DNA of 64,000 bases from an uncultured Lachnospiraceae bacterium. GTDB taxonomy: Bacteria > Bacillota > Clostridia > Lachnospirales > Lachnospiraceae. Position 1 is the first letter of the stretch, and the number at the start of each line of letters is the position of its first letter. Where the stretch lies: the NCBI GenBank assembly GCA_910586555.1, contig CAJUJY010000004.1:12112-76111 (forward strand). The letters are read 5' to 3'. The notes under the pieces are model-generated. The model worked only from the letters and a program-made list of their open reading frames with translations, was not told where the DNA came from and made no database searches. This document shows, one piece after another, positions 106-58,052 of this stretch. The translations under genes and the position numbers were made by a program.

Positions 106-1515
106 ATGGCTACAGACGAAAAGCAGTGGCATCAAAGATTTTTAAAGTACATGGAAGGGATTGTCAATAATCCTAACTACAAAGGTTTACCTATCAAGAA
201 AAAACCAGACGGCACCTATGCATGGATAGCCACAGCTAAATCCGATATTGGTCAACAACGCATTGATTGGTGTATCGATAAAGCTCAAGAATTGGACTTT
301 GTAGTAAGACACGAAGCATATCCAGGAATGTATGCTGACGTTATGCTCGAAATCCATCCCACAAAGTGGAAAGTATGCCAGATTTGCGGCAAAGAAATGT
401 CCCTATACTATCACTACCCAAATGCTAATTTTCTTAAATCACTAAACAAAAAATTCGGTACAGATTTCTCTGACTGTGACCATATCAGTGATATTTGGGA
501 TGAACTCATCATTAACGGAATCCGCAAAGTCGATATTGCGTCATTCCTGATTGAAAAAGGTGACTTGGATTTAAATGCGCGTACCGCTGAAAAAGATGAA
601 ATTATTGAGGCATTAGAATACGCTTGCCGTAAAGGGGACAAAAAATGCCTTGGTCCAGGAGCAATGTCAAATTTTCCTGATCGATATGATGGATTCCATA
701 CATACAATCGCTGTTGCAGAGCTACTCAGGACAAAGGTCGTTCAAAAGAAAACCTTAAATCTTACACCAAAGACAGACGCGCCTATGAATATTGGAGTGA
801 CGGAAATATCCATGCGGCCAATCAATTTATGGGAAGTGCTTTCTTCGATGGCACATCTGCCGACCACATCGGTCCGATTTCTTTGGGATTTGTCCACGAC
901 CCACGTTATCTGCAACCTATGCCGGGCGGAGATAATTCCTCTAAGCGCGACCGCTTGCAAATTGTAGATATCGAAAGCATCATTGAAACAGAAAAGCGAA
1001 CAGGCATCTATCCTATGTCTTGGCAATCCAAACTAATTTGGGAATTTATACGAGCAAATTATACTATTCATCCTGAAAAGGTGCCTACTGTTTATCGTGA
1101 TGCACTCAAGCAAAATATGGCTAACTTTATGTTTATCCTATTAACCATACTTGAAACTTGTCCTGAAAATGGCGAAGATTTTCTTGTTGCTGCATTTTTG
1201 GAACCAAACTACGATTATTTCAAATATTCTTACACATTTAATGCCAAAGGGGAAATCGTAGCCAAAGCAGATAGGCACTACACTGACCGCAACCAATATG
1301 AAACCGATAGATATAAGCGAATTGCTATTGAGGCCGTTTATGATTATAGCGCAAAGGATAATCGTCACAACAAGCATGACCTTACTTCGTCTGAAATGGC
1401 TACCCTAAAATCTATCTGCGTTAGCATTGAATCCGGTAGTCCATTTGCGTCCTGCAAACAACTCGTAATCAAGCTTATGGAAACGATTCAGAAAAGAACA
1501 ATCCGCTCATTATAA
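106..1515 (+). CDS. Putative type IIS restriction endonuclease, HNH-type (Alw26I/Eco31I/Esp3I-like by context)
   Basis: 469-aa ORF with a GGAGG RBS 7 nt upstream. It is convergent with, and 45 bp from, a fused m6A+m5C methyltransferase. The stretch SADHIGPISLGF...GGDNSSKRDR (nt ~856-960) is compatible with an HNH/beta-beta-alpha-Me site. Family assignment rests on context and motif memory only. Confidence 0.55.
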   Translation: MATDEKQWHQRFLKYMEGIVNNPNYKGLPIKKKPDGTYAWIATAKSDIGQQRIDWCIDKAQELDFVVRHEAYPGMYADVMLEIHPTKWKVCQICGKEMSLYYHYPNANFLKSLNKKFGTDFSDCDHISDIWDELIINGIRKVDIASFLIEKGDLDLNARTAEKDEIIEALEYACRKGDKKCLGPGAMSNFPDRYDGFHTYNRCCRATQDKGRSKENLKSYTKDRRAYEYWSDGNIHAANQFMGSAFFDGTSADHIGPISLGFVHDPRYLQPMPGGDNSSKRDRLQIVDIESIIETEKRTGIYPMSWQSKLIWEFIRANYTIHPEKVPTVYRDALKQNMANFMFILLTILETCPENGEDFLVAAFLEPNYDYFKYSYTFNAKGEIVAKADRHYTDRNQYETDRYKRIAIEAVYDYSAKDNRHNKHDLTSSEMATLKSICVSIESGSPFASCKQLVIKLMETIQKRTIRSL

Positions 1516-1520
1516 TTGGA

Positions 1521-1558
1521 AAGAGGATGACTATCTCAACGGTAATCATCCTCTTTTT
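1521..1558. terminator. Bidirectional rho-independent terminator between the convergent R and M genes
   Basis: 10-bp perfect stem AAGAGGATGA (1521-1530) / TCATCCTCTT (1546-1555) with a 15-nt loop. TTT(T)C follows on the plus strand and TTTCC follows on the minus strand. Confidence 0.7.
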
Positions 1559-1560
1559 CA

Positions 1561-4500
1561 TCATAATAAGTCGACCAAACTCAGTTGTTCGTATTGTTCT
1601 TCGCCTTGTTCCTTTTCCGTATCTTCAGAATCTGGCGATTTTAAAGACACATATTCTTCATATGTTATATGCCCCTTGAAAAATTCAAGTATATCTGAAC
1701 TGTATCCCTCAACATATTTTGCGTTATCATCACACGGAACTGTTTCCAAATCTGCAATTGTATCCCTGGCAGTGACTTGATTGGATTCTTCCGATGTAAT
1801 CGGTTCAGGAAATAATTCCCCAGGCGTTACCTCCATATCGTTTCTTGTGCAAATAATTATGACCCTTTTTCTTTTTTGAGGAACCGCATAATCACTTGTC
1901 ATCAACGTTCTGCCTTCCGTATTATATCCGAGTTCAGTAAAAAGTGCGTGTACTTCACGGTATGTTTTTCCACCCTGGTAACTTAACAATCCTTCCACAT
2001 TCTCAAAAACAATAACTTTGGGATTTACTCTCTTAACGATATCAACAAATTCCCTGAACAGTTGATTTCTTGGGTCATCATCCGCCCTGAATCCCGCCAT
2101 CGAAAAACCTTGACAAGGTGGACCTCCACATATGATATCAGCACCACCATCTAATGCTGCCCTCTCAATAGCATCTTTTGTTTCAGCTTTTGTTATATCA
2201 CCACAAAGTACATTGATTTCTGGATTATTAATCTTTAATGTCACACACGCACTCTCTTCAATATCATTACTCAACAAAGACTGAATGCCAGCCGCCTTAA
2301 ATCCTGCTGTCATACCTCCCGCACCACAAAACAAATCTATAGACTTGGAACAACCAGTCTTTTTCTTTATTTCACGTGCTATTTGGTATGCTAATAAAGT
2401 CGGTACAGCATTTCCGACCTGTTTCAAATGCTGTGTTTTATTACCATAGAAATAATAATCATCTTTGAAAGCCTGAAATCTTGCTGCTTCCCTTACGGTC
2501 AGAACTCTCTCATGAACAGGATGTACATAGGTTCCGTTTCCCGGTCTGTTAAAGTAGGTTGTTATGGTATAACTTGGTTTGTTATAATCAATTCTACCAT
2601 ATAGAGTTGTTCTACCACCAGTTTGCGTTATTCTTTTCAGTCTCTTTGATTTTTCCACGGTTTCCATCGGAATATCTTTCCAACTTCCTCCTGGTGGCAC
2701 CGCCTTTATCATTTCTAAATCCAAGTCACTTAATTTAAAAGTGGTATGGTTCAGAATCAACCCCTGAAACAGCGACAGATATTTCGACGTTATCCCTTTA
2801 GCAACACTCGTATCGAATTTGCTAAGACCATCAATGAATCCGTCTATTTTTACTTTACCATTTAGAATACTCGCTGCCTCCTCACTCGTAATGTGAGGAA
2901 TGAGATACTTAATCGCATCAGTATACTCTTGGATACATTGCTTCTCGTCCATTCTATGTTCTCCCGTATTTGCTGTAATTCCATATGCCTGATATGTTAA
3001 TTGTTCTATTTCCTCAAGAATTGATTCATCCTGAGTGTCCAAAAACATTTTTGCAAGTGTTGATATTCGTTTCAATTCCGGAGCCTCTACCGGAATTGGG
3101 AAACAGTCAATTTCATAATTATTGACATGATTATTGCTACTGGTTAATTTGAATAACCAGTTAATTATTTTTGTATTGAATAGACCTAATAATGTATATA
3201 TATCTATTCCGTATTGATTTTCGCCCACAGATACAAAATTGCATGAATTCCCTAACACATAATTTTGAGGAGCTAATGCAAATGTTACACGCCTCTCCTT
3301 ATTCATATTTGCGATTTGTTGACAAATAATTCTATCTTGTTCAATGTAGCATTTCTTTTTCGTTGTGTTAACAAATCCTTCTGCTACATATTCATTTTCA
3401 GAGGAAGTCAGCAGAGTGTAATATCCTATATTCCTTCCGCGCACCAGCGGATAGCCTGTATCGACATTAACAATGTTATTCTTGTTGGCTGTCAAGTCAA
3501 GTTCTCCTCTTAAATTGCTCACAAAAGGAAGTTCTTTGACAACCGGAAACTGTCTTAGCTTTCTTAAAATTCGATATTCTTTTGAGGTAACCGCAACAAT
3601 TGCATTTCCGGTATTTTCATTCAAAATGTCTTTAATCGCAACCTCCGCAATGTCATTCGGGTTATTACAATAATCTTTGACAACAGCAACCTTGTCTGTT
3701 TTATGTGATTTTTGTAGAAGAATCGCACTTAAGGCCTGTTGTGCATCTATGAATCCACTTCCTTCGCCGATTACTTTCACCGAAATCATTTTATTATCCT
3801 TAAGCATATGCGTTCTCAATTTCATGCACGTCTTGTCGGACATAATCGATGCTGGAATCAGCAAACTAACAAATGCGGTTTCGCTAGCATATCGGTCGAT
3901 AATTTCTTCTACAAACAACTTGTATAGATTCAAAACACCATCTGTCGAATATTTAAAACGCTTTGCTACAATTTTAGAAATGGCAGAATATTTGTCTTTA
4001 TCTCTGTCGTATTCCTCATCACTACTGTAATGCCCGCGTTCTGCTTTCAAATTTTTATATGGTGGATTTGTTGCAACAATATCAAATCCAGCTCCAACAA
4101 TCTCCTTCGAGAAAACTTCACTGATGTTAATGTAATTCAGTTCTGCTGCAGTTACATCAACCAATAATCCTGTTCCCAAATGTTGCTCGAAGTAATCTTC
4201 TTGTAGCTCGATACCCCAAAATAATGCAGCCATTTTCTTCAAGGACTCTCTGTAACCATTAAGGGCATCTGTATTTACGTCTACGACATAAATATTATCT
4301 AACATAATCATAGCCGTTTCCTTGTCAAGCCCGGTAGCCCTAACAGCTTCAATGTATGAAAAGACAAAGTTTCCGGCACCGACACACGGCTCCAAAAAAC
4401 GGTATTCATATAATTTTTTTGTCGGATTGGCAACTTTAAGATGTTCTACTAATTCACTCATCATTACATCCGTAAGCTTCAAATCCGTATAATAACTTCC

Positions 4501-4596
4501 TGTTCTTTTTCGTGTCAAAGCATCCATTCCCGTTTCAATATGTCTGCTTTTTTCACTCAAGGAAGACCACAGTTCTGTATATTGCGTATCGCTCAT
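1561..4596 (-). CDS. Bifunctional DNA methyltransferase: N-terminal gamma-class N6-adenine MTase fused to a C-terminal circularly permuted C5-cytosine MTase
   Basis: 1011 aa with a GGAG RBS. The N-terminal part has FLEPCVGAGNF (motif I) and ATNPPY (motif IV). The C-terminal part has IDLFCGAGG (I), GGPPCQGFSMAG (IV), FENV (VI) and QKRKR (VIII). TVREAARFQAF (IX) and GNAVP (X) lie upstream of motif I. Confidence 0.9.
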   Translation of the reverse strand: MSDTQYTELWSSLSEKSRHIETGMDALTRKRTGSYYTDLKLTDVMMSELVEHLKVANPTKKLYEYRFLEPCVGAGNFVFSYIEAVRATGLDKETAMIMLDNIYVVDVNTDALNGYRESLKKMAALFWGIELQEDYFEQHLGTGLLVDVTAAELNYINISEVFSKEIVGAGFDIVATNPPYKNLKAERGHYSSDEEYDRDKDKYSAISKIVAKRFKYSTDGVLNLYKLFVEEIIDRYASETAFVSLLIPASIMSDKTCMKLRTHMLKDNKMISVKVIGEGSGFIDAQQALSAILLQKSHKTDKVAVVKDYCNNPNDIAEVAIKDILNENTGNAIVAVTSKEYRILRKLRQFPVVKELPFVSNLRGELDLTANKNNIVNVDTGYPLVRGRNIGYYTLLTSSENEYVAEGFVNTTKKKCYIEQDRIICQQIANMNKERRVTFALAPQNYVLGNSCNFVSVGENQYGIDIYTLLGLFNTKIINWLFKLTSSNNHVNNYEIDCFPIPVEAPELKRISTLAKMFLDTQDESILEEIEQLTYQAYGITANTGEHRMDEKQCIQEYTDAIKYLIPHITSEEAASILNGKVKIDGFIDGLSKFDTSVAKGITSKYLSLFQGLILNHTTFKLSDLDLEMIKAVPPGGSWKDIPMETVEKSKRLKRITQTGGRTTLYGRIDYNKPSYTITTYFNRPGNGTYVHPVHERVLTVREAARFQAFKDDYYFYGNKTQHLKQVGNAVPTLLAYQIAREIKKKTGCSKSIDLFCGAGGMTAGFKAAGIQSLLSNDIEESACVTLKINNPEINVLCGDITKAETKDAIERAALDGGADIICGGPPCQGFSMAGFRADDDPRNQLFREFVDIVKRVNPKVIVFENVEGLLSYQGGKTYREVHALFTELGYNTEGRTLMTSDYAVPQKRKRVIIICTRNDMEVTPGELFPEPITSEESNQVTARDTIADLETVPCDDNAKYVEGYSSDILEFFKGHITYEEYVSLKSPDSEDTEKEQGEEQYEQLSLVDLL

Positions 4597-20339: not shown

Positions 20340-20417
20340 AACCAGATAATACTTTTAAATGCCAGTGTATGTCCTATAAAAAACCAGCATTTTTCGTGCT
20401 TAGGTTTTTACAGGACT

Positions 20418-21100
20418 GGTTCATAAATTATAATGTAAATAAAAGATAATTTATAGTTATCTGTGGTTTGTTTTAAAGGAGGTATATAGAAATTTTTATG
20501 CCCTGGCAGTTCCAAAGTGTCCCATGTACAGCCCGCTTGCGCTTGGACTTACACGCAGCGGTGCATAAAGCCCTTATGCTTCAAAGAAAAAACTTCTTTG
20601 AAGCATTTAAGACAGGGCTTAAACACCGGCGGCTGCGTACATCTGTCCATTGGGAGCACATTTGGAACTTGCCAGGTAATATACGTTTTGGCAGTTTATA
20701 AAAATATTTTTTGTACATCTCCTTAACTTATGGGAATTAAAAGTTTTCTTGCTTGTATTTTAATTTCTTGGTAAAATTTTATATTTCTCTTAAAGATGGA
20801 AAACCAGAGTATACAACATTCTCTGGTTATTACCTGTAACTTGTATTTTTCCATAGTGTTTAAACCATGTGGAAAATTTTTATGTCCTGTGTAAAAGGCA
20901 TTTTTGCACCGTCAGTGCTTAAACCTGGTATTTTCAGGTTTTATGCACTGTTACGTGTGCAATCATAGCGGAAGCGGGCCTTTTACCGGGACATAAAAAT
21001 TTCCACATGTACAACCTCCTTAAAACAAACCACAGATAACTATAAATTATCTCCTGTTTATATATAATTAAAAATTTATGAAATGGACTTGGGATTTTTA
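20418..21100 (+). repeat. Composite ~0.68-kb repeat element E1, with long terminal inverted repeats and no credible ORF
   Basis: TIR core AGATAATTTATAGTTATCTGTGGTTTGTTTTAA(A)GGAGGT at 20444-20483 recurs inverted at 21012-51. Homology to E2 extends ~25-50 bp beyond both cores. Contents: a covarying hairpin (20501-20676), a 60-bp module S (20731-20790) and a second long hairpin (20871-21004). Boundaries are approximate. Confidence 0.8.
20501..20676 (+). ncRNA. Candidate structured RNA (or ssDNA hairpin), ~175 nt, unassigned family
   Basis: A long imperfect hairpin closed by CCTGGCA.GTTCCAAA / TTTGGAACTTGCCAGG, with a 13-bp apical stem ATGCTTCAAAGAA / TTCTTTGAAGCAT. Two helices differ from the E2 copy by paired, compensatory changes. 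No transcript evidence is available. Confidence 0.45.
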
Positions 21101-21109
21101 CAAAAAAGG

Positions 21110-23599: not shown

Positions 23600-23795
23600 T
23601 TTAACCTCATTAAGTAAGCCCTTTAAAATACACGCTTCTTAAGCGGTGGGTTTGGTTTACCAGGGCTTACTTAGTCTGGCAGGGGTTCAAGCTCCTGACA
23701 GACTGCCACAAAGCGGCAATGAGGTTGTTTTGCAAGTGGGCAAGTAGCCAATGCCTGCTTTGCAGGCGAAGCGGATTGCGAATATCCGCTTGAAT
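23600..23795 (+). repeat. Multi-hairpin intergenic repeat, copy A (full length)
   Basis: AACCTCAT-TAAGTAAGCCC...GGGCTTACTTA-GTCTGGCAGGGG..CTCCTGACAGAC-TGCCACAAAGCGGCA-ATGAGGTT, followed by hairpins GCCTGCTTTGCAGGC and AAGCGGATTGCGAATATCCGCTT. It lies between the convergent blaR1 and trxB. Confidence 0.85.
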
Positions 23796-23828
23796 ACACA
23801 ATGGCTGTATTTTTCCTCTGGTTTTACA

Positions 23829-40124: not shown

Positions 40125-40344
40125 AATTAACCTCTTTCTTTTATTAGTATATATTAACCAGCAGTACTGTTACTGTGGTTGTTACCGTTGCTTACGCAAT
40201 AATAGGAATTGTATAACTCTTGAAAATTCAATAGAATTAATAGAAATAATCTATAATATCCGGATGTTAAACGTGGTACTTTAAATTTCTGCTCTTATAA
40301 ATAATATACACAATAACTTCCATATTGTAAAGTAAATTCTTACA

Positions 40345-41010
40345 TCTGTTCCAGAAATTTATAATATAAATAATAGATAATTTATAGTTATCCAAGGTTT
40401 GTTGTATATATTGTAGTCTGTGTACATGCAGCAGTTTTATATATTTTCTGTAGCAGGCACGTTCCCACTACGATAGTGCCTTTTACAGAAAATATATAAA
40501 ACTGCTTGCATGTTACTATGTTTCATTGGGAATTAAAAGTTTTCCTGTTTGTATTTTAACTTTTTGACAAAATTTTATATTTGTCTGGAAGACTTTTATG
40601 TCCCATGTAAAAAGTACTTTTCACCGTTATTAAACACTATCACATGTGCAAGTGCAGTACAATGCCATTGAACCAGGGAAATCCACAGGAAATATTTTTA
40701 TAAACTGCCAAAACGTATATTACCTGGCAAAGGCCAGATGTAATCCTAAAAGGCAACTGTACGGGGCCGCCGGCGTTTAAACCTGGTTTTAAATGCTTCA
40801 AAGAAATTTTTTCTTTGAAGCATACAGGTTTTACGCGCCGTTGCGTGAACCCGTCCAAGCGGAAGCGGGTTGCCTGTAGGATTACTTTGGACTTGCCAGG
40901 GTATAACATTCTGGTCTATTATTTAAAATAAACCGTGGATAACTATAAATTATCTTTTGTTTGCGAACAATTAAAAATTTATGCAACAGACATGGATTCT
41001 ATTATTTTTT
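40345..41010 (-). repeat. Composite ~0.67-kb repeat element E2, same family as E1 with the hairpin on the opposite strand
   Basis: TIR cores AGATAATTTATAGTTATCCAAGGTTTGTT (40375-40403) and its inverted partner at 40927-40955. Contents: a 95-nt near-perfect palindrome (40425-40519), module S (40527-40586) and the covarying hairpin (40723-40901). Boundaries are approximate. Confidence 0.8.
40723..40901 (-). ncRNA. Second copy of the candidate ~175-nt structured RNA/hairpin
   Basis: It has the same architecture as 20501-20676. The apical 13-bp stem is identical (40793-40805 / 40811-40823). Helix GTAATCCTA/TAGGATTAC replaces E1's GTGTCCCA/TGGGAGCAC, and ACCTG/CAGGT replaces GCCC/GGGC. Confidence 0.45.
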
Positions 41011-41625: not shown

Positions 41626-41658
41626 TGTGCCCTGCTGCTTAAAAAGTCCAGGCTGTTT

Positions 41659-41841
41659 GTCAAACGGATATTCGCGATCCGCTTCGCCTGCAAGCAGGCA
41701 TTGGCTACTTGCCCACTTGCAAATCAACCTCATTGCCGCTTTGCGGCAGTCTGGCAGGAGCTTGAACTCCTGCCAGACTAAGTAAGCCCTGGTAAATCAA
41801 ACCCACCGCTTAAGAAGCGGGGACTTACTTAATGAGGTTAA
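41659..41841 (-). repeat. Multi-hairpin intergenic repeat, copy B (full length, inverted)
   Basis: Its reverse complement aligns module-for-module with copy A. It lies between the convergent 41086-41625 ORF and argG. Confidence 0.85.
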
Positions 41842-41860
41842 ACAGTTTTCCTGTAAAAAT

Positions 41861-43453: not shown

Positions 43454-43516
43454 CTTTCAAGGAAATAAAAGACCAGGCTTTTTGTTAATTTCCTGGCAGA
43501 AATGCCATAAAACATT

Positions 43517-43715
43517 AGCGCCAGACCCTTAACATGCATTTTTAGATATTACCTGGAAGCATTGTGATACAGCCCTGCCCTTTAAACCAGTGCAGGCAGT
43601 AAGGGTGACGAGGTAAAAGGTTATCGGAATTCCGGCGGATGCCTTTTTGTATTCTTTGCATGCAGAGGTATGGGCAGACACCTGGGTAACCAGGGAACAA
43701 ATCCTGTACCAGCAA
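43517..43715 (+). ncRNA. glmS ribozyme: glmS glucosamine-6-phosphate-activated ribozyme
   Basis: It has the cleavage-site/core sequence AGCGCCAGA (43517-), then GACGAGG and GGTTATCGGAATTCCGGCGGATGCC. These match the conserved glmS ribozyme core, and it sits directly upstream of glmS. The 3' boundary is approximate. Confidence 0.85.
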
Positions 43716-43782
43716 AGGGATATTTTAATATAATATACCATATTGTAAATAACAGGCAGAAAGTGCAGAAAAGAGGTAAATT

Positions 43783-45603
43783 ATGTGCGGAATTATTGGA
43801 TTTACAGGTAATATCAATGCAAAAGAGGTATTACTACAAGGACTTAAAGCCCTTGAATACCGTGGTTATGACAGTGCCGGCATTTCTTATTTTACAGAAA
43901 GCGGCATTAAAACAATTAAAGCAGTTGGCAAGGTTTCAGGCCTTGCAGAAAAAGTTGCACTATCAGATGGTGACATACCAAAGTGCGGAATAGGCCATAC
44001 ACGGTGGGCAACACATGGCGGTGTTTCTGAAATTAACTGCCACCCTCACCATTTTGGCAAGGTAACACTTATCCATAATGGCATTATTGAAAATTACAAA
44101 GAATTACAAGAAGAACTTGCCCTTGATGGTAAAGAACCTGTTTCACAGACAGATTCAGAGATTGCTGCTATGGTGATTGATTCATGTTATAAATCAAATC
44201 CCGTAAGGGCTATTAAAAAAGCTGTTAAAAAACTACACGGTGCATATGCATTCTGTATAATGTTTGAAGACCACCCTGGAAGCATATATGCAATAAGGAA
44301 TGGCAGCCCGCTTGTTGCCACTGCTACTAAAGAAGGGGCTGTTATTGCATCAGACATGGTTGCACTTATAAAATATTCTAAAGATTATTTTGTACTGCCT
44401 GAACACCATATAGCCCACCTTACAGCAGGAAGCATTAATATTACAGACCTTGACCAGAATGAAATTGAACCGGATATGCTCCATGTAAACTGGGATATGG
44501 CAGCAGCAAGAAAAGGCGGTTATGAGTATTTTATGCTCAAAGAAATACATGAACAGCCAGAAGCACTCCATAATACAATATCACCAAGAATAAAAGACGG
44601 GCTTCCTGACTTTTCGGCAGATAATATACCTGACAGCCTGTTTGAAAATACAGACAGGATAATAATAACAGCCTGTGGTACTGCAATGCATGCAGGGCTT
44701 ATTGGCAAAAACATGATTGAAAAACTTTCAAGGGTTCCTGTTACTGTGGATATTGCTTCGGAGTTCCGTTACCAGAACCCTGTAATTGATAGCAATACAC
44801 TTGTTATAACTATATCCCAGTCAGGCGAAACCGCAGACACGCTTGCTGCATTAAGGCTTGCCAAAGAATGTGGTGCTAAAACATTGTCAATAGTTAATGT
44901 TAAGGGTTCTTCCATTGCACGTGAAAGTGATTATGTGCTTTATACACATGCAGGCCCTGAAATAGCTGTTGCAAGCACTAAAGCTTATACTGTACAGCTT
45001 GCCACAATCTATCTTTTTGCATTCAGGTTTGCACTTTTAAAAGACATTGTACCAGAAGCAGAAATAAGAAATTTAACAAGCATACTTCTGAAGATGCCTG
45101 GCTTTGTGGAAAATATGCTTTCATGTGACAAGGCTATAGAAAAAATAAGCAATAAACTTAAAAAGACTAAAAACCTTTTCTTTATCGGGCGCGGGCTTGA
45201 TTATGCACTTTCATGTGAAGGTTCAATTAAATTAAAAGAAGTAAGTTATATACATTCAGAGGCATATGCAGCAGGTGAACTTAAACATGGCACTATATCA
45301 CTTATTACAGATAATGTGCCAGTAATTGCACTTGCTACCCAGGACAATGTTTTTACTAAAATGATTTCCAATATACGGGAGGTACGTTCCCGTGGTGCAA
45401 AGGTTATAATGATTACAGGCGCTGATACAGGGGTTGATGCATCACTTTGTGACCACCTTATCACACTCCCGCCAGTAAATGATTTATTTGCGCCATTCGG
45501 GGCAGCAATAGTATTACAGTATATTGCATACTATACAGCTGTTGCAAAGGGGCTTAATGTAGACCAGCCAAGAAACCTTGCTAAATCAGTAACTGTAGAG
45601 TAA
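43783..45603 (+). CDS. glmS: Glutamine--fructose-6-phosphate aminotransferase
   Basis: MCGIIGF N-terminal nucleophile, two SIS domains and a C-terminal ...KSVTVE. Confidence 0.97.
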   Translation: MCGIIGFTGNINAKEVLLQGLKALEYRGYDSAGISYFTESGIKTIKAVGKVSGLAEKVALSDGDIPKCGIGHTRWATHGGVSEINCHPHHFGKVTLIHNGIIENYKELQEELALDGKEPVSQTDSEIAAMVIDSCYKSNPVRAIKKAVKKLHGAYAFCIMFEDHPGSIYAIRNGSPLVATATKEGAVIASDMVALIKYSKDYFVLPEHHIAHLTAGSINITDLDQNEIEPDMLHVNWDMAAARKGGYEYFMLKEIHEQPEALHNTISPRIKDGLPDFSADNIPDSLFENTDRIIITACGTAMHAGLIGKNMIEKLSRVPVTVDIASEFRYQNPVIDSNTLVITISQSGETADTLAALRLAKECGAKTLSIVNVKGSSIARESDYVLYTHAGPEIAVASTKAYTVQLATIYLFAFRFALLKDIVPEAEIRNLTSILLKMPGFVENMLSCDKAIEKISNKLKKTKNLFFIGRGLDYALSCEGSIKLKEVSYIHSEAYAAGELKHGTISLITDNVPVIALATQDNVFTKMISNIREVRSRGAKVIMITGADTGVDASLCDHLITLPPVNDLFAPFGAAIVLQYIAYYTAVAKGLNVDQPRNLAKSVTVE

Positions 45604-47400: not shown

Positions 47401-47463
47401 CCTTTATCCGGTTTATCTATTTATATGAAATGCAGGATAATATTAGAACATATAAAAAAGCGT

Positions 47464-47597
47464 TTAACCTCATTAAGTAAGTCCCCCGCTTCTTAAGCGG
47501 TGGGTTTAGGACTTACTTAATGAGGTTGTTTTGCAGGTGGGCAAGTAGCAAATGCCTGCTTTGCAGGCAATGCAGATTGCGAATATCCGCTTGACTA
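47464..47597 (+). repeat. Multi-hairpin intergenic repeat, copy C (short form)
   Basis: AACCTCATTAAGTAAGTCC ... GGACTTACTTAATGAGGTT forms a perfect 19-bp stem enclosing CCGCTTCTTAAGCGG. It lacks the 45-nt two-hairpin insert of copies A, B and D, and the same 3' hairpin modules follow. Confidence 0.85.
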
Positions 47598-47604
47598 AGG
47601 ACAT

Positions 47605-57840: not shown

Positions 57841-57895
57841 AAGAATCCCCCATTCTAAAACCTGCTTATAGAAACATGCTGTTAAAGGCCGCCTT

Positions 57896-58052
57896 TTAAC
57901 CTCATTAAGTAAGTCCCACGCTTCTTAAGCGGTGGGTTTAGGACTTACTTAGTCTGGCAGGAGTTTAAGCTCCTGCCAGACTGCCGCAAAGCGGCAATGA
58001 GGTTATGAGCAAGTAGCGAAGCGGATTGCGAATATCAGTTTGACTACTTGCT
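57896..58052 (+). repeat. Multi-hairpin intergenic repeat, copy D
   Basis: AACCTCAT / TAAGTAAGTCC..GGACTTACTTA / GTCTGGCAGGAG..CTCCTGCCAGAC / TGCCGCAAAGCGGCA / ATGAGGTT, then GCAAGTAG...CTACTTGC. Confidence 0.85.

Follow-up and report, generated by a model that had tools for sequence, protein, structure and literature searches.

Among the closest described counterparts of the element reported here are the REPIN/RAYT systems, in which two inverted REP arms of ~25–35 nt form a long hairpin that is extragenic, dispersed and present in multiple copies. REP arms carry a conserved 5′ motif of the GTAG type. The hairpin that we term H1 was found in a 64,000-nt stretch of DNA from an uncultured Lachnospiraceae bacterium (GCA_910586555.1, contig CAJUJY010000004.1; the whole stretch is called the window below). 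It has the same form of a long hairpin of two inverted arms in extragenic, dispersed copies, and compensatory changes in the stem are common in H1 as they are in REPIN hairpins (PMC3116915). It differs from REPINs in that its arms are ~85 nt long, its termini vary (CTGGCAATTCC..., GTGTATAAC..., CATGTGGAAA...) and carry no GTAG-type motif, its most conserved part is an asymmetric central core and not the ends, and its host is a Firmicute. No RAYT (Y1 HUH transposase) gene was found in the neighborhoods examined (~100 kb of the source species).

The ERIC/IRU elements of enterobacteria and other stem-loop families (Cozzuto et al., 2008, PMC2267715) offer a second comparison. H1 resembles these intergenic, often transcribed, imperfect palindromes of ~130–190 nt, in which size variants arise by internal indels (the H1 apex may be present or absent) and a shared fold defines the family. 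However, its sequence is unrelated to theirs, it occurs in another taxon, and copies of it lie inside composite blocks with 44-nt inverted repeats. Classical MITEs (Correia/NEMIS, RUP, bcr1) are likewise non-coding, short, dispersed and hairpin-folding, can adjoin promoters, and show presence/absence polymorphism at orthologous sites, which we also observed for H1. Set against this likeness, H1 has variable termini, no known parent insertion sequence and no clear target-site duplication: the inverted termini are inherent in the palindrome, a 3-nt GGA repeat was seen at one clean junction, and the block ends are ambiguous.

With integron attC sites H1 shares a conservation of structure above that of sequence, unpaired or bulged bases conserved on one arm, and a variable terminal structure, features that would fit the recognition of folded single-stranded DNA. 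It is far longer than attC, is flanked by housekeeping genes, and has no RYYYAAC/GTTRRRY core sites, cassette array or integrase. 6S RNA is also a ~180-nt hairpin with asymmetric internal loops, but H1 has no match to 6S in Rfam, is multi-copy and polymorphic, and includes one copy devoid of loops. From these comparisons and the evidence below we consider, with a probability of roughly 0.6, that H1 belongs to a family of interspersed repeats, long and imperfectly palindromic, that occurs in a Lachnospiraceae lineage, has not been described before and is of the REPIN, ERIC or hairpin-forming MITE kind. The family is probably mobile, and is best read as being selected or maintained as folded DNA.

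H1 copies in and beyond the window

An initial annotation of this DNA, made from its letters, had proposed a hairpin present twice as a candidate structured RNA. Both hairpins were found where it had placed them, each with a 3′ tail.

20501..20678, + strand: H1A hairpin (from its fold; 180 bits with covariance model R1)
40721..40902, − strand: H1B hairpin, the second copy (from its fold; 178 bits with R1)
20679..20709, + strand: 3′ tail of H1A (identical in H1B, ~70% similar in copy L026)
40690..40720, − strand: 3′ tail of H1B (from sequence identity with the H1A tail)

H1A and H1B are 83% identical (177/213), each is an imperfect hairpin of ~180 nt, and on either strand each folds much more stably than its dinucleotide shuffles (z −6.7 to −7.9). 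The differences between them include those described in the initial annotation: the helix formed by GTGTCCCA (20517–24) and TGGGAGCAC (20651–59) in H1A is replaced by GTAATCCTA and TAGGATTAC in H1B, and the helix flanking the apex changes from GCCC/GGGC to ACCTG/CAGGT. As stated there, the two copies do not differ in the 13-bp apical stem or in the closing stem CCTGGCA/TGCCAGG. They also share the 3′ tail, which starts CCAGGTAATATACG...; its identity extends over 38 nt (20672–20709 = 40690–40727), with 0 chance matches in shuffles.

The earlier statement that H1 belongs to no known RNA family also held when Rfam 15 was searched. Over the hairpins there was no match at the gathering score, and at E ≤ 10 none beyond chance-level matches to eukaryotic miRNAs and snoRNAs; across the entire window the gathering threshold returned only a tRNA and the glmS ribozyme (43506–43720, + strand, 66 bits). 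The ribozyme lies upstream of glmS (43783–45603) and is an ordinary Firmicute feature. The genes around H1A and H1B are pdxS/pdxT, blaI/blaR1, rho, a 179-aa ORF without a Pfam match, and argG, in agreement with the reported absence of nuclease, recombinase and reverse transcriptase genes beside either copy. At the left edge of the window, 106–4596 encodes an Alw26I-like restriction enzyme and a 1011-aa methylase of the Eco57I/TaqI_C type. These form the edge of a mobile-element-like gene set that extends leftwards (contigs L094/L095), where it includes a family A DNA polymerase, an Enc34 ssDNA-binding protein, a PD-(D/E)XK nuclease and a helicase, and that has two different right-hand neighborhoods in different samples.

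The picture of two copies was correct as far as it went, in that both are present, but it had missed that H1 belongs to a multi-copy family, together with two further members and the inverted repeats that bound the surrounding blocks. The further members were recovered by alignment and with covariance model R1, which was built from five copies.

20866..21009, − strand: H2A, a shorter H1 homologue (from its self-palindrome, alignments, and 125 bits with R1)
L092:432-609 and L093:398-575, − strand: H1C, the fourth copy (from R1; both contigs end inside its block)

H2A shares the conserved core of H1 but not its 13-bp apical stem, and its outer stem differs. H1C, found with R1 in two assemblies of the same species, lies ~2 kb past the right end of the window; it is 98% identical to H1A, with 3 differences over the 178 positions of the hairpin, whereas the arms that surround it are only ~80–94% identical. 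There are thus four copies in ~66 kb of the source genome (H1A, H2A, H1B and H1C), all of them intergenic. Taken over all members, the unit is a hairpin of 145–190 nt with a conserved, asymmetric core (5′ arm CCCGCTTSCGCT...CACGYARCGGYRCATAAAGCCC, 3′ arm GRGCTTAAAYRCCGRCGGC), a variable apex, an outer stem that is always paired but variable in sequence, and usually a 3′ tail of ~35 nt.

Mosaic blocks and distribution of the family

A repeat search showed that every hairpin copy in the source genome sits in an intergenic mosaic block of ~650–690 bp bounded by 44-nt inverted repeats.

20405..21098, no strand assigned: block A, a mosaic repeat block of ~690 bp (from similarity to block B), in the interval from the pdxT terminator to the blaI promoter
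40337..40997, no strand assigned: block B, a mosaic repeat block of ~660 bp upstream of rho, between rho and the 179-aa ORF
20433..20476, + strand: left 44-nt inverted repeat of block A, containing AGATAATTTATAGTTATC (repeat pair)
21020..21063, − strand: right 44-nt inverted repeat of block A (repeat pair)
40368..40410, + strand: left inverted repeat of block B (repeat pair)
40920..40962, − strand: right inverted repeat of block B (repeat pair)
20731..20796, + strand: central module D6 (86% identical family, in direct orientation with blocks B and C)
40527..40627, + strand: D6 module with a remnant of an H2-like 3′ half at 40586–40627 (direct matches to 20731–20796 and 20870–20912)
40424..40513, no strand assigned: H3, an AT-rich 90-nt palindrome unrelated to H1 (self-palindrome; fold)

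Blocks A and B are collinear on the + strand at their left flanks, in the central module (20731–20796 with 40527–40592) and at their right flanks. H1 occupies the left arm in block A and the right arm in block B; the other arms hold H2A (right arm of block A) and H3, which takes the slot of H1A in the left arm of block B. H3 is an almost perfect palindrome (−52 kcal/mol on either strand) and also occurs in block C, the third block, which carries H1C, is built like block B, and lies upstream of a DUF4317 gene. In blocks A and B the right end directly adjoins the −35 box of the downstream gene.

The 18-mer AGATAATTTATAGTTATC occurs exactly four times in the window (20444–20461, 21035–21052, 40375–40392 and 40938–40955) against 0.29 expected. 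This invariant core of the inverted repeat is itself a dyad, GATAA-N7-TTATC, and lies ~20 nt before AAGGAGG in both arms of block A. Judged by its letters, it has the look of an operator, of a site bound by a transposase, or of the promoter-proximal end of an insertion sequence; at its outer end the block arm may resemble the ends of IS6-family elements. A Fur box and a DnaA box in the inverted repeat were rejected on reading the sequence, as the spacing or the bases did not fit.

Long inverted repeats on both sides of each block raise the possibility that the ~650-bp blocks are invertible, phase-variable promoter cassettes, flipped at the 44-nt repeats by a recombinase whose gene lies elsewhere, with the hairpin as cargo. 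All three blocks contain, by eye, a weak promoter-like site at their center that points toward the right-hand gene (in D6 of block A, TTGCTT-17-TAAAAT, below the scan threshold), and all three have their right end ~120–170 nt upstream of a gene start. Contigs also break at the inverted repeats: several assemblies do so at the left repeat of block A (L089–L091), and contigs L079 and L080 terminate within the inverted repeat of block B. Many contigs, L004 and L005 as well as these, end inside blocks, as is expected of repeat sequence, and four copies of a 44–70-nt repeat would cause such breaks anyway. Block A has the same orientation in three independent assemblies, no recombinase gene lies nearby, and blocks A and B differ by the exchange of modules and not by a simple flip. 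Inversion would also leave the lone hairpins of other species unexplained, and we regard it as very improbable.

The source genome also carries R2, a second modular family of interspersed repeats of ~140–200 nt, which contains the hairpin AGTCTGGCAGGAGYTYRAGCTCCTGCCAGACT and whose modules are variably present among the copies.

23626-23800 (+), 41650-41850 (−), 47463-47600 (+) and 57895-58050 (+): R2 copies in the window
L092:195-372: R2 copy beyond the window
L084:3956-3982: R2 fragment in a sister species

The R2 copy inside block C stands between two direct copies of the 7-bp TGGCATT, of which block B has a single one, so this R2 copy looks like a MITE insertion with a target-site duplication. 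We count this active-looking co-resident family, with its 7-bp duplication in block C, in favor of reading H1 as an interspersed repeat.

Comparison with relatives showed that the blocks are present or absent at orthologous sites. In a sister species (L084; PdxT 93% identical) the gene order pdxS-pdxT-blaI-blaR1 is the same and the pdxT-blaI spacer measures 256 nt, against 917 nt here. Block A is absent between pdxT and blaI in L084–L086, and homology to the sister species in this interval stops at 20345 and resumes at 21102. The rho leader likewise matches relatives with Rho 86–89% identical (L081–L083) only as far as 40341, the edge of block B, and in 60 kb these relatives contained neither H1 nor the inverted repeat. 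Contigs of the same species, retrieved by exact-protein look-ups, are essentially identical throughout block A.

The cleanest case concerns two assemblies of one species with PdxT 89% identical, which carries a more diverged copy. Between the two there is an indel of 181 nt, which consists of the hairpin itself and falls at the base of its stem. The empty form (L087) reads GCAAGCGGAAGCCCTG, and the filled form (L088) reads GCAAGCGGA, followed by the hairpin (CGCAGGGCTTCC...36-bp stem...core...GTTATACACGGA) and AGCCCTG. A GGA direct repeat flanks the ends of the indel, which is asymmetric: the last bases of the 3′ arm, GGAAGCCCTG, stay, and the complementary 5′ end, CAGGGCTTCC, is removed. In this one filled/empty pair the footprint is the same as that of REPIN excisions (Bertels and Rainey, PMC3116915). 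Insertion, excision and slippage deletion could each account for the indel, and L087 may have lost the hairpin instead of never having had it, because the 3-nt GGA could be deletion microhomology. L088 also lacks ~120 nt, including the start of the downstream acyltransferase-3 gene (L088:1154-1400 vs L087:1400-1560), so the filled allele goes with a second rearrangement. Homology between the H1 tail and the flank in L087/L088 was suggestive, but no better than the chance level for AT-rich sequence.

A scan of 185,579 species genomes with the core motif found relatives in only two MAGs, MGBC103936, a mouse-gut Lachnospiraceae with relatives on two contigs (one of which ends within the element), and Lachnoclostridium sp. 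UBA7097. Together with L088, H1 relatives are present in three other Lachnospiraceae genomes. The copies in all three lack the 44-nt inverted repeat, which indicates that the hairpin is a separable unit. Model R1 detected nothing beyond the listed copies in ~360 kb of retrieved loci, and there were no H1 relatives in ~180 kb of other close relatives. Viral contigs queried with the tail and with the 18-mer of the inverted repeat gave 0 matches and 19 chance matches in coding sequence, respectively. A scan of JGI metagenomes with the core pattern returned 51 matches, none of them related, blastn of block A against plasmids and phages returned nothing, and the inverted-repeat motif GATAATTTATAGTTATCNNNGGTTT had 0 matches in genome contigs.

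Base pairing, coding potential and orientation

The claim in the initial annotation that pairing and not sequence is conserved was upheld across eight aligned copies (alignment A8), in which 34 of 52 pairs are changed on both sides. Standard pairs fill 92% of the 370 cells, against 30–42% with the partners slid, and these values were reached by 0 of 500 shuffles; they refer to eight model-guided rows, hence fitted to the model, that stand for only about six independent copies, and the two L025 rows give the two strands of a single locus. Covariation in the core is clean, with two forms of the helix CGY/RCG and four of CGGYR/YRCCG, and one-sided (wobble) states are rare among the changes. A “clover” fold within one arm (CCGCTTSCG with CGYARCGG) was also considered and set aside, as it is good only where S is G and has no support from covariation.

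Very strong covariation in every helix, including those of the core, speaks for a structured non-coding RNA family, either an sRNA or a cis-acting element of the 3′ or 5′ UTR, with the copies as paralogous genes. It would be a new one, being absent from Rfam. The unpaired core nucleotides are conserved between species while the stems drift, and in four copies the antisense strand folds 8–10 kcal/mol better than the sense strand. Furthermore, the L025, L026 and L088 hairpins lie 18–50 nt past the stop codons of dnaK, a potD-like gene and a gene for a YkuD-domain protein, with hairpin and gene co-oriented in both orientable cases, a placement that is compatible with an RNA role too.

The mispairs in A8 point the other way. 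G·U and A·C each account for 10 cells (and C·T for 9), so there is no preference for wobble, and G·U pairs are absent altogether when H1A, H1B and H2A are folded as the sense strand. In a transcript under selection G·U is normally tolerated and A·C is not; the symmetry between the two therefore argues for complementarity at the level of DNA. Scans for sigma-70 promoters and terminators found no more sites than in shuffles and none common to the copies. Orientation to genes is inconsistent as well: H1A is co-oriented with its flanking genes, H2A is antisense to these same genes, and H1B and H1C point away from the nearest right-hand (downstream) gene. The copies are nested among other repeats, and their presence varies within a species and between sister species. 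The discrete structured RNA gene that had been suggested is thus not supported: dispersed copies, presence/absence polymorphism and inconsistent gene and promoter orientation speak against it, as do the lack of a wobble preference and the symmetrized copy described next, and an RNA family of this kind appears unlikely.

That copy, L025, has no internal loop. Its 3′ arm has turned into the reverse complement of the 5′ arm, giving a near-perfect palindrome (−138 kcal/mol) in which the normally one-sided CCCGCTTGCGCTTG is duplicated and every internal loop is erased. Such a change arises in DNA, in the manner of a template switch, a process documented as both producing and preserving the pairing of hairpins (PMC8794818). 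One arm copied wholesale onto the other is what would be seen if H1 were a functionless quasi-palindrome whose arms stay complementary only through template switching or gene conversion between them, the fold itself being under no selection. That almost all changes run from one Watson–Crick pair to another, with few one-sided intermediates, suits it equally. Yet unconstrained homogenization of the arms should erase the bulge (CGCTTSCGCT) and the loops, and five of the six independent copies keep this asymmetric bulge and the internal loops at ~60–83% identity, with outer stems that are unrelated in sequence. Homogenization alone is therefore not the whole story, and something selects for a particular imperfect hairpin. 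Spread to unrelated loci in several species would, in addition, need a copying mechanism. A functionless palindrome seems improbable to us, about as likely as a stand-alone RNA gene.

Small ORFs of 67–89 aa overlap the hairpins (20498–20701, 20517–20726 and 40640–40909), and the ATG at 20498 is preceded, at a distance of 15 nt, by AGGAGG, as in a small protein gene. None of these frames is conserved. The ATG at 20498 is ATA in H1B, 1- and 2-nt indels shift the frame, and AGGAGG is absent from block B. The frame shared by 20517–20726 and 40640–40909 has 7 synonymous against 14 non-synonymous differences, ACG-CAG-CGG is replaced by ACG-TAA or ACG-TAG in L026, H2A and L088, and the other frame reaches TGA in L026. 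With its start lost, frameshifts, and in-frame stops in homologues, the hairpin is therefore not a protein gene, and we give a small protein practically no weight. Three further candidates were rejected on reading the sequence: a sigma-54 promoter in the CTGGCA motifs, a retron (no reverse transcriptase gene) and a type I toxin-antitoxin system (no conserved small hydrophobic ORF).

A probable hairpin-forming DNA repeat and its meaning

The initial annotation had argued for selection on a folded nucleic acid, either RNA or single-stranded DNA. Selection on a fold has stood up, and the single-stranded DNA half of that statement fits best with H1 as an interspersed repeat. Gain or loss of H1 can occur with the base of its stem as the exact boundary. 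Its pairing would be kept because an enzyme with its gene at another locus can copy or excise the element only in the form of folded single-stranded DNA, and the conserved bulge and internal loops may be the recognition features for that enzyme, by the same logic as in REP/RAYT, the ends of IS200/IS605 elements, and attC sites. Template switching between the arms would contribute part of the “compensatory” changes. Where the element is co-transcribed it would also form an RNA hairpin, possibly stabilizing or attenuating the neighboring mRNAs, which would be a by-product and not its raison d’être.

Several observations count against H1 as a repeat of this kind, among them the lack of clear target-site duplications, the placement of three copies shortly past stop codons and the small number of independent copies. 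In addition, no transposase or recombinase gene was present near any H1 copy in the neighborhoods examined, and the termini are the least conserved part of the element and the core the most. Classical MITEs have the opposite pattern, and a conserved core is expected of a functional folded molecule, possibly an RNA. We also put forward, tentatively and as a bolder proposal than the repeat itself, that the family may be the substrate of a hairpin-recognizing single-strand DNA transposase or recombinase in Clostridia, a Firmicute counterpart of REPIN-RAYT, for which the bulge and loops would serve as a recognition code; each integration would rebuild the variable outer stem from flanking target sequence.

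Strong “covariation” within a hairpin is commonly taken to prove a functional RNA, and here the same signal appears in an element with the behavior of a dispersed DNA repeat, which therefore provides a useful caution for non-coding RNA screens. The family breaks metagenome assemblies of an uncultured gut Lachnospiraceae and could act as a strain marker. It inserts beside the promoters of housekeeping and regulatory genes (rho, blaI/blaR1), and, if an enzyme partner exists, it would extend REPIN-like systems to the Firmicutes.
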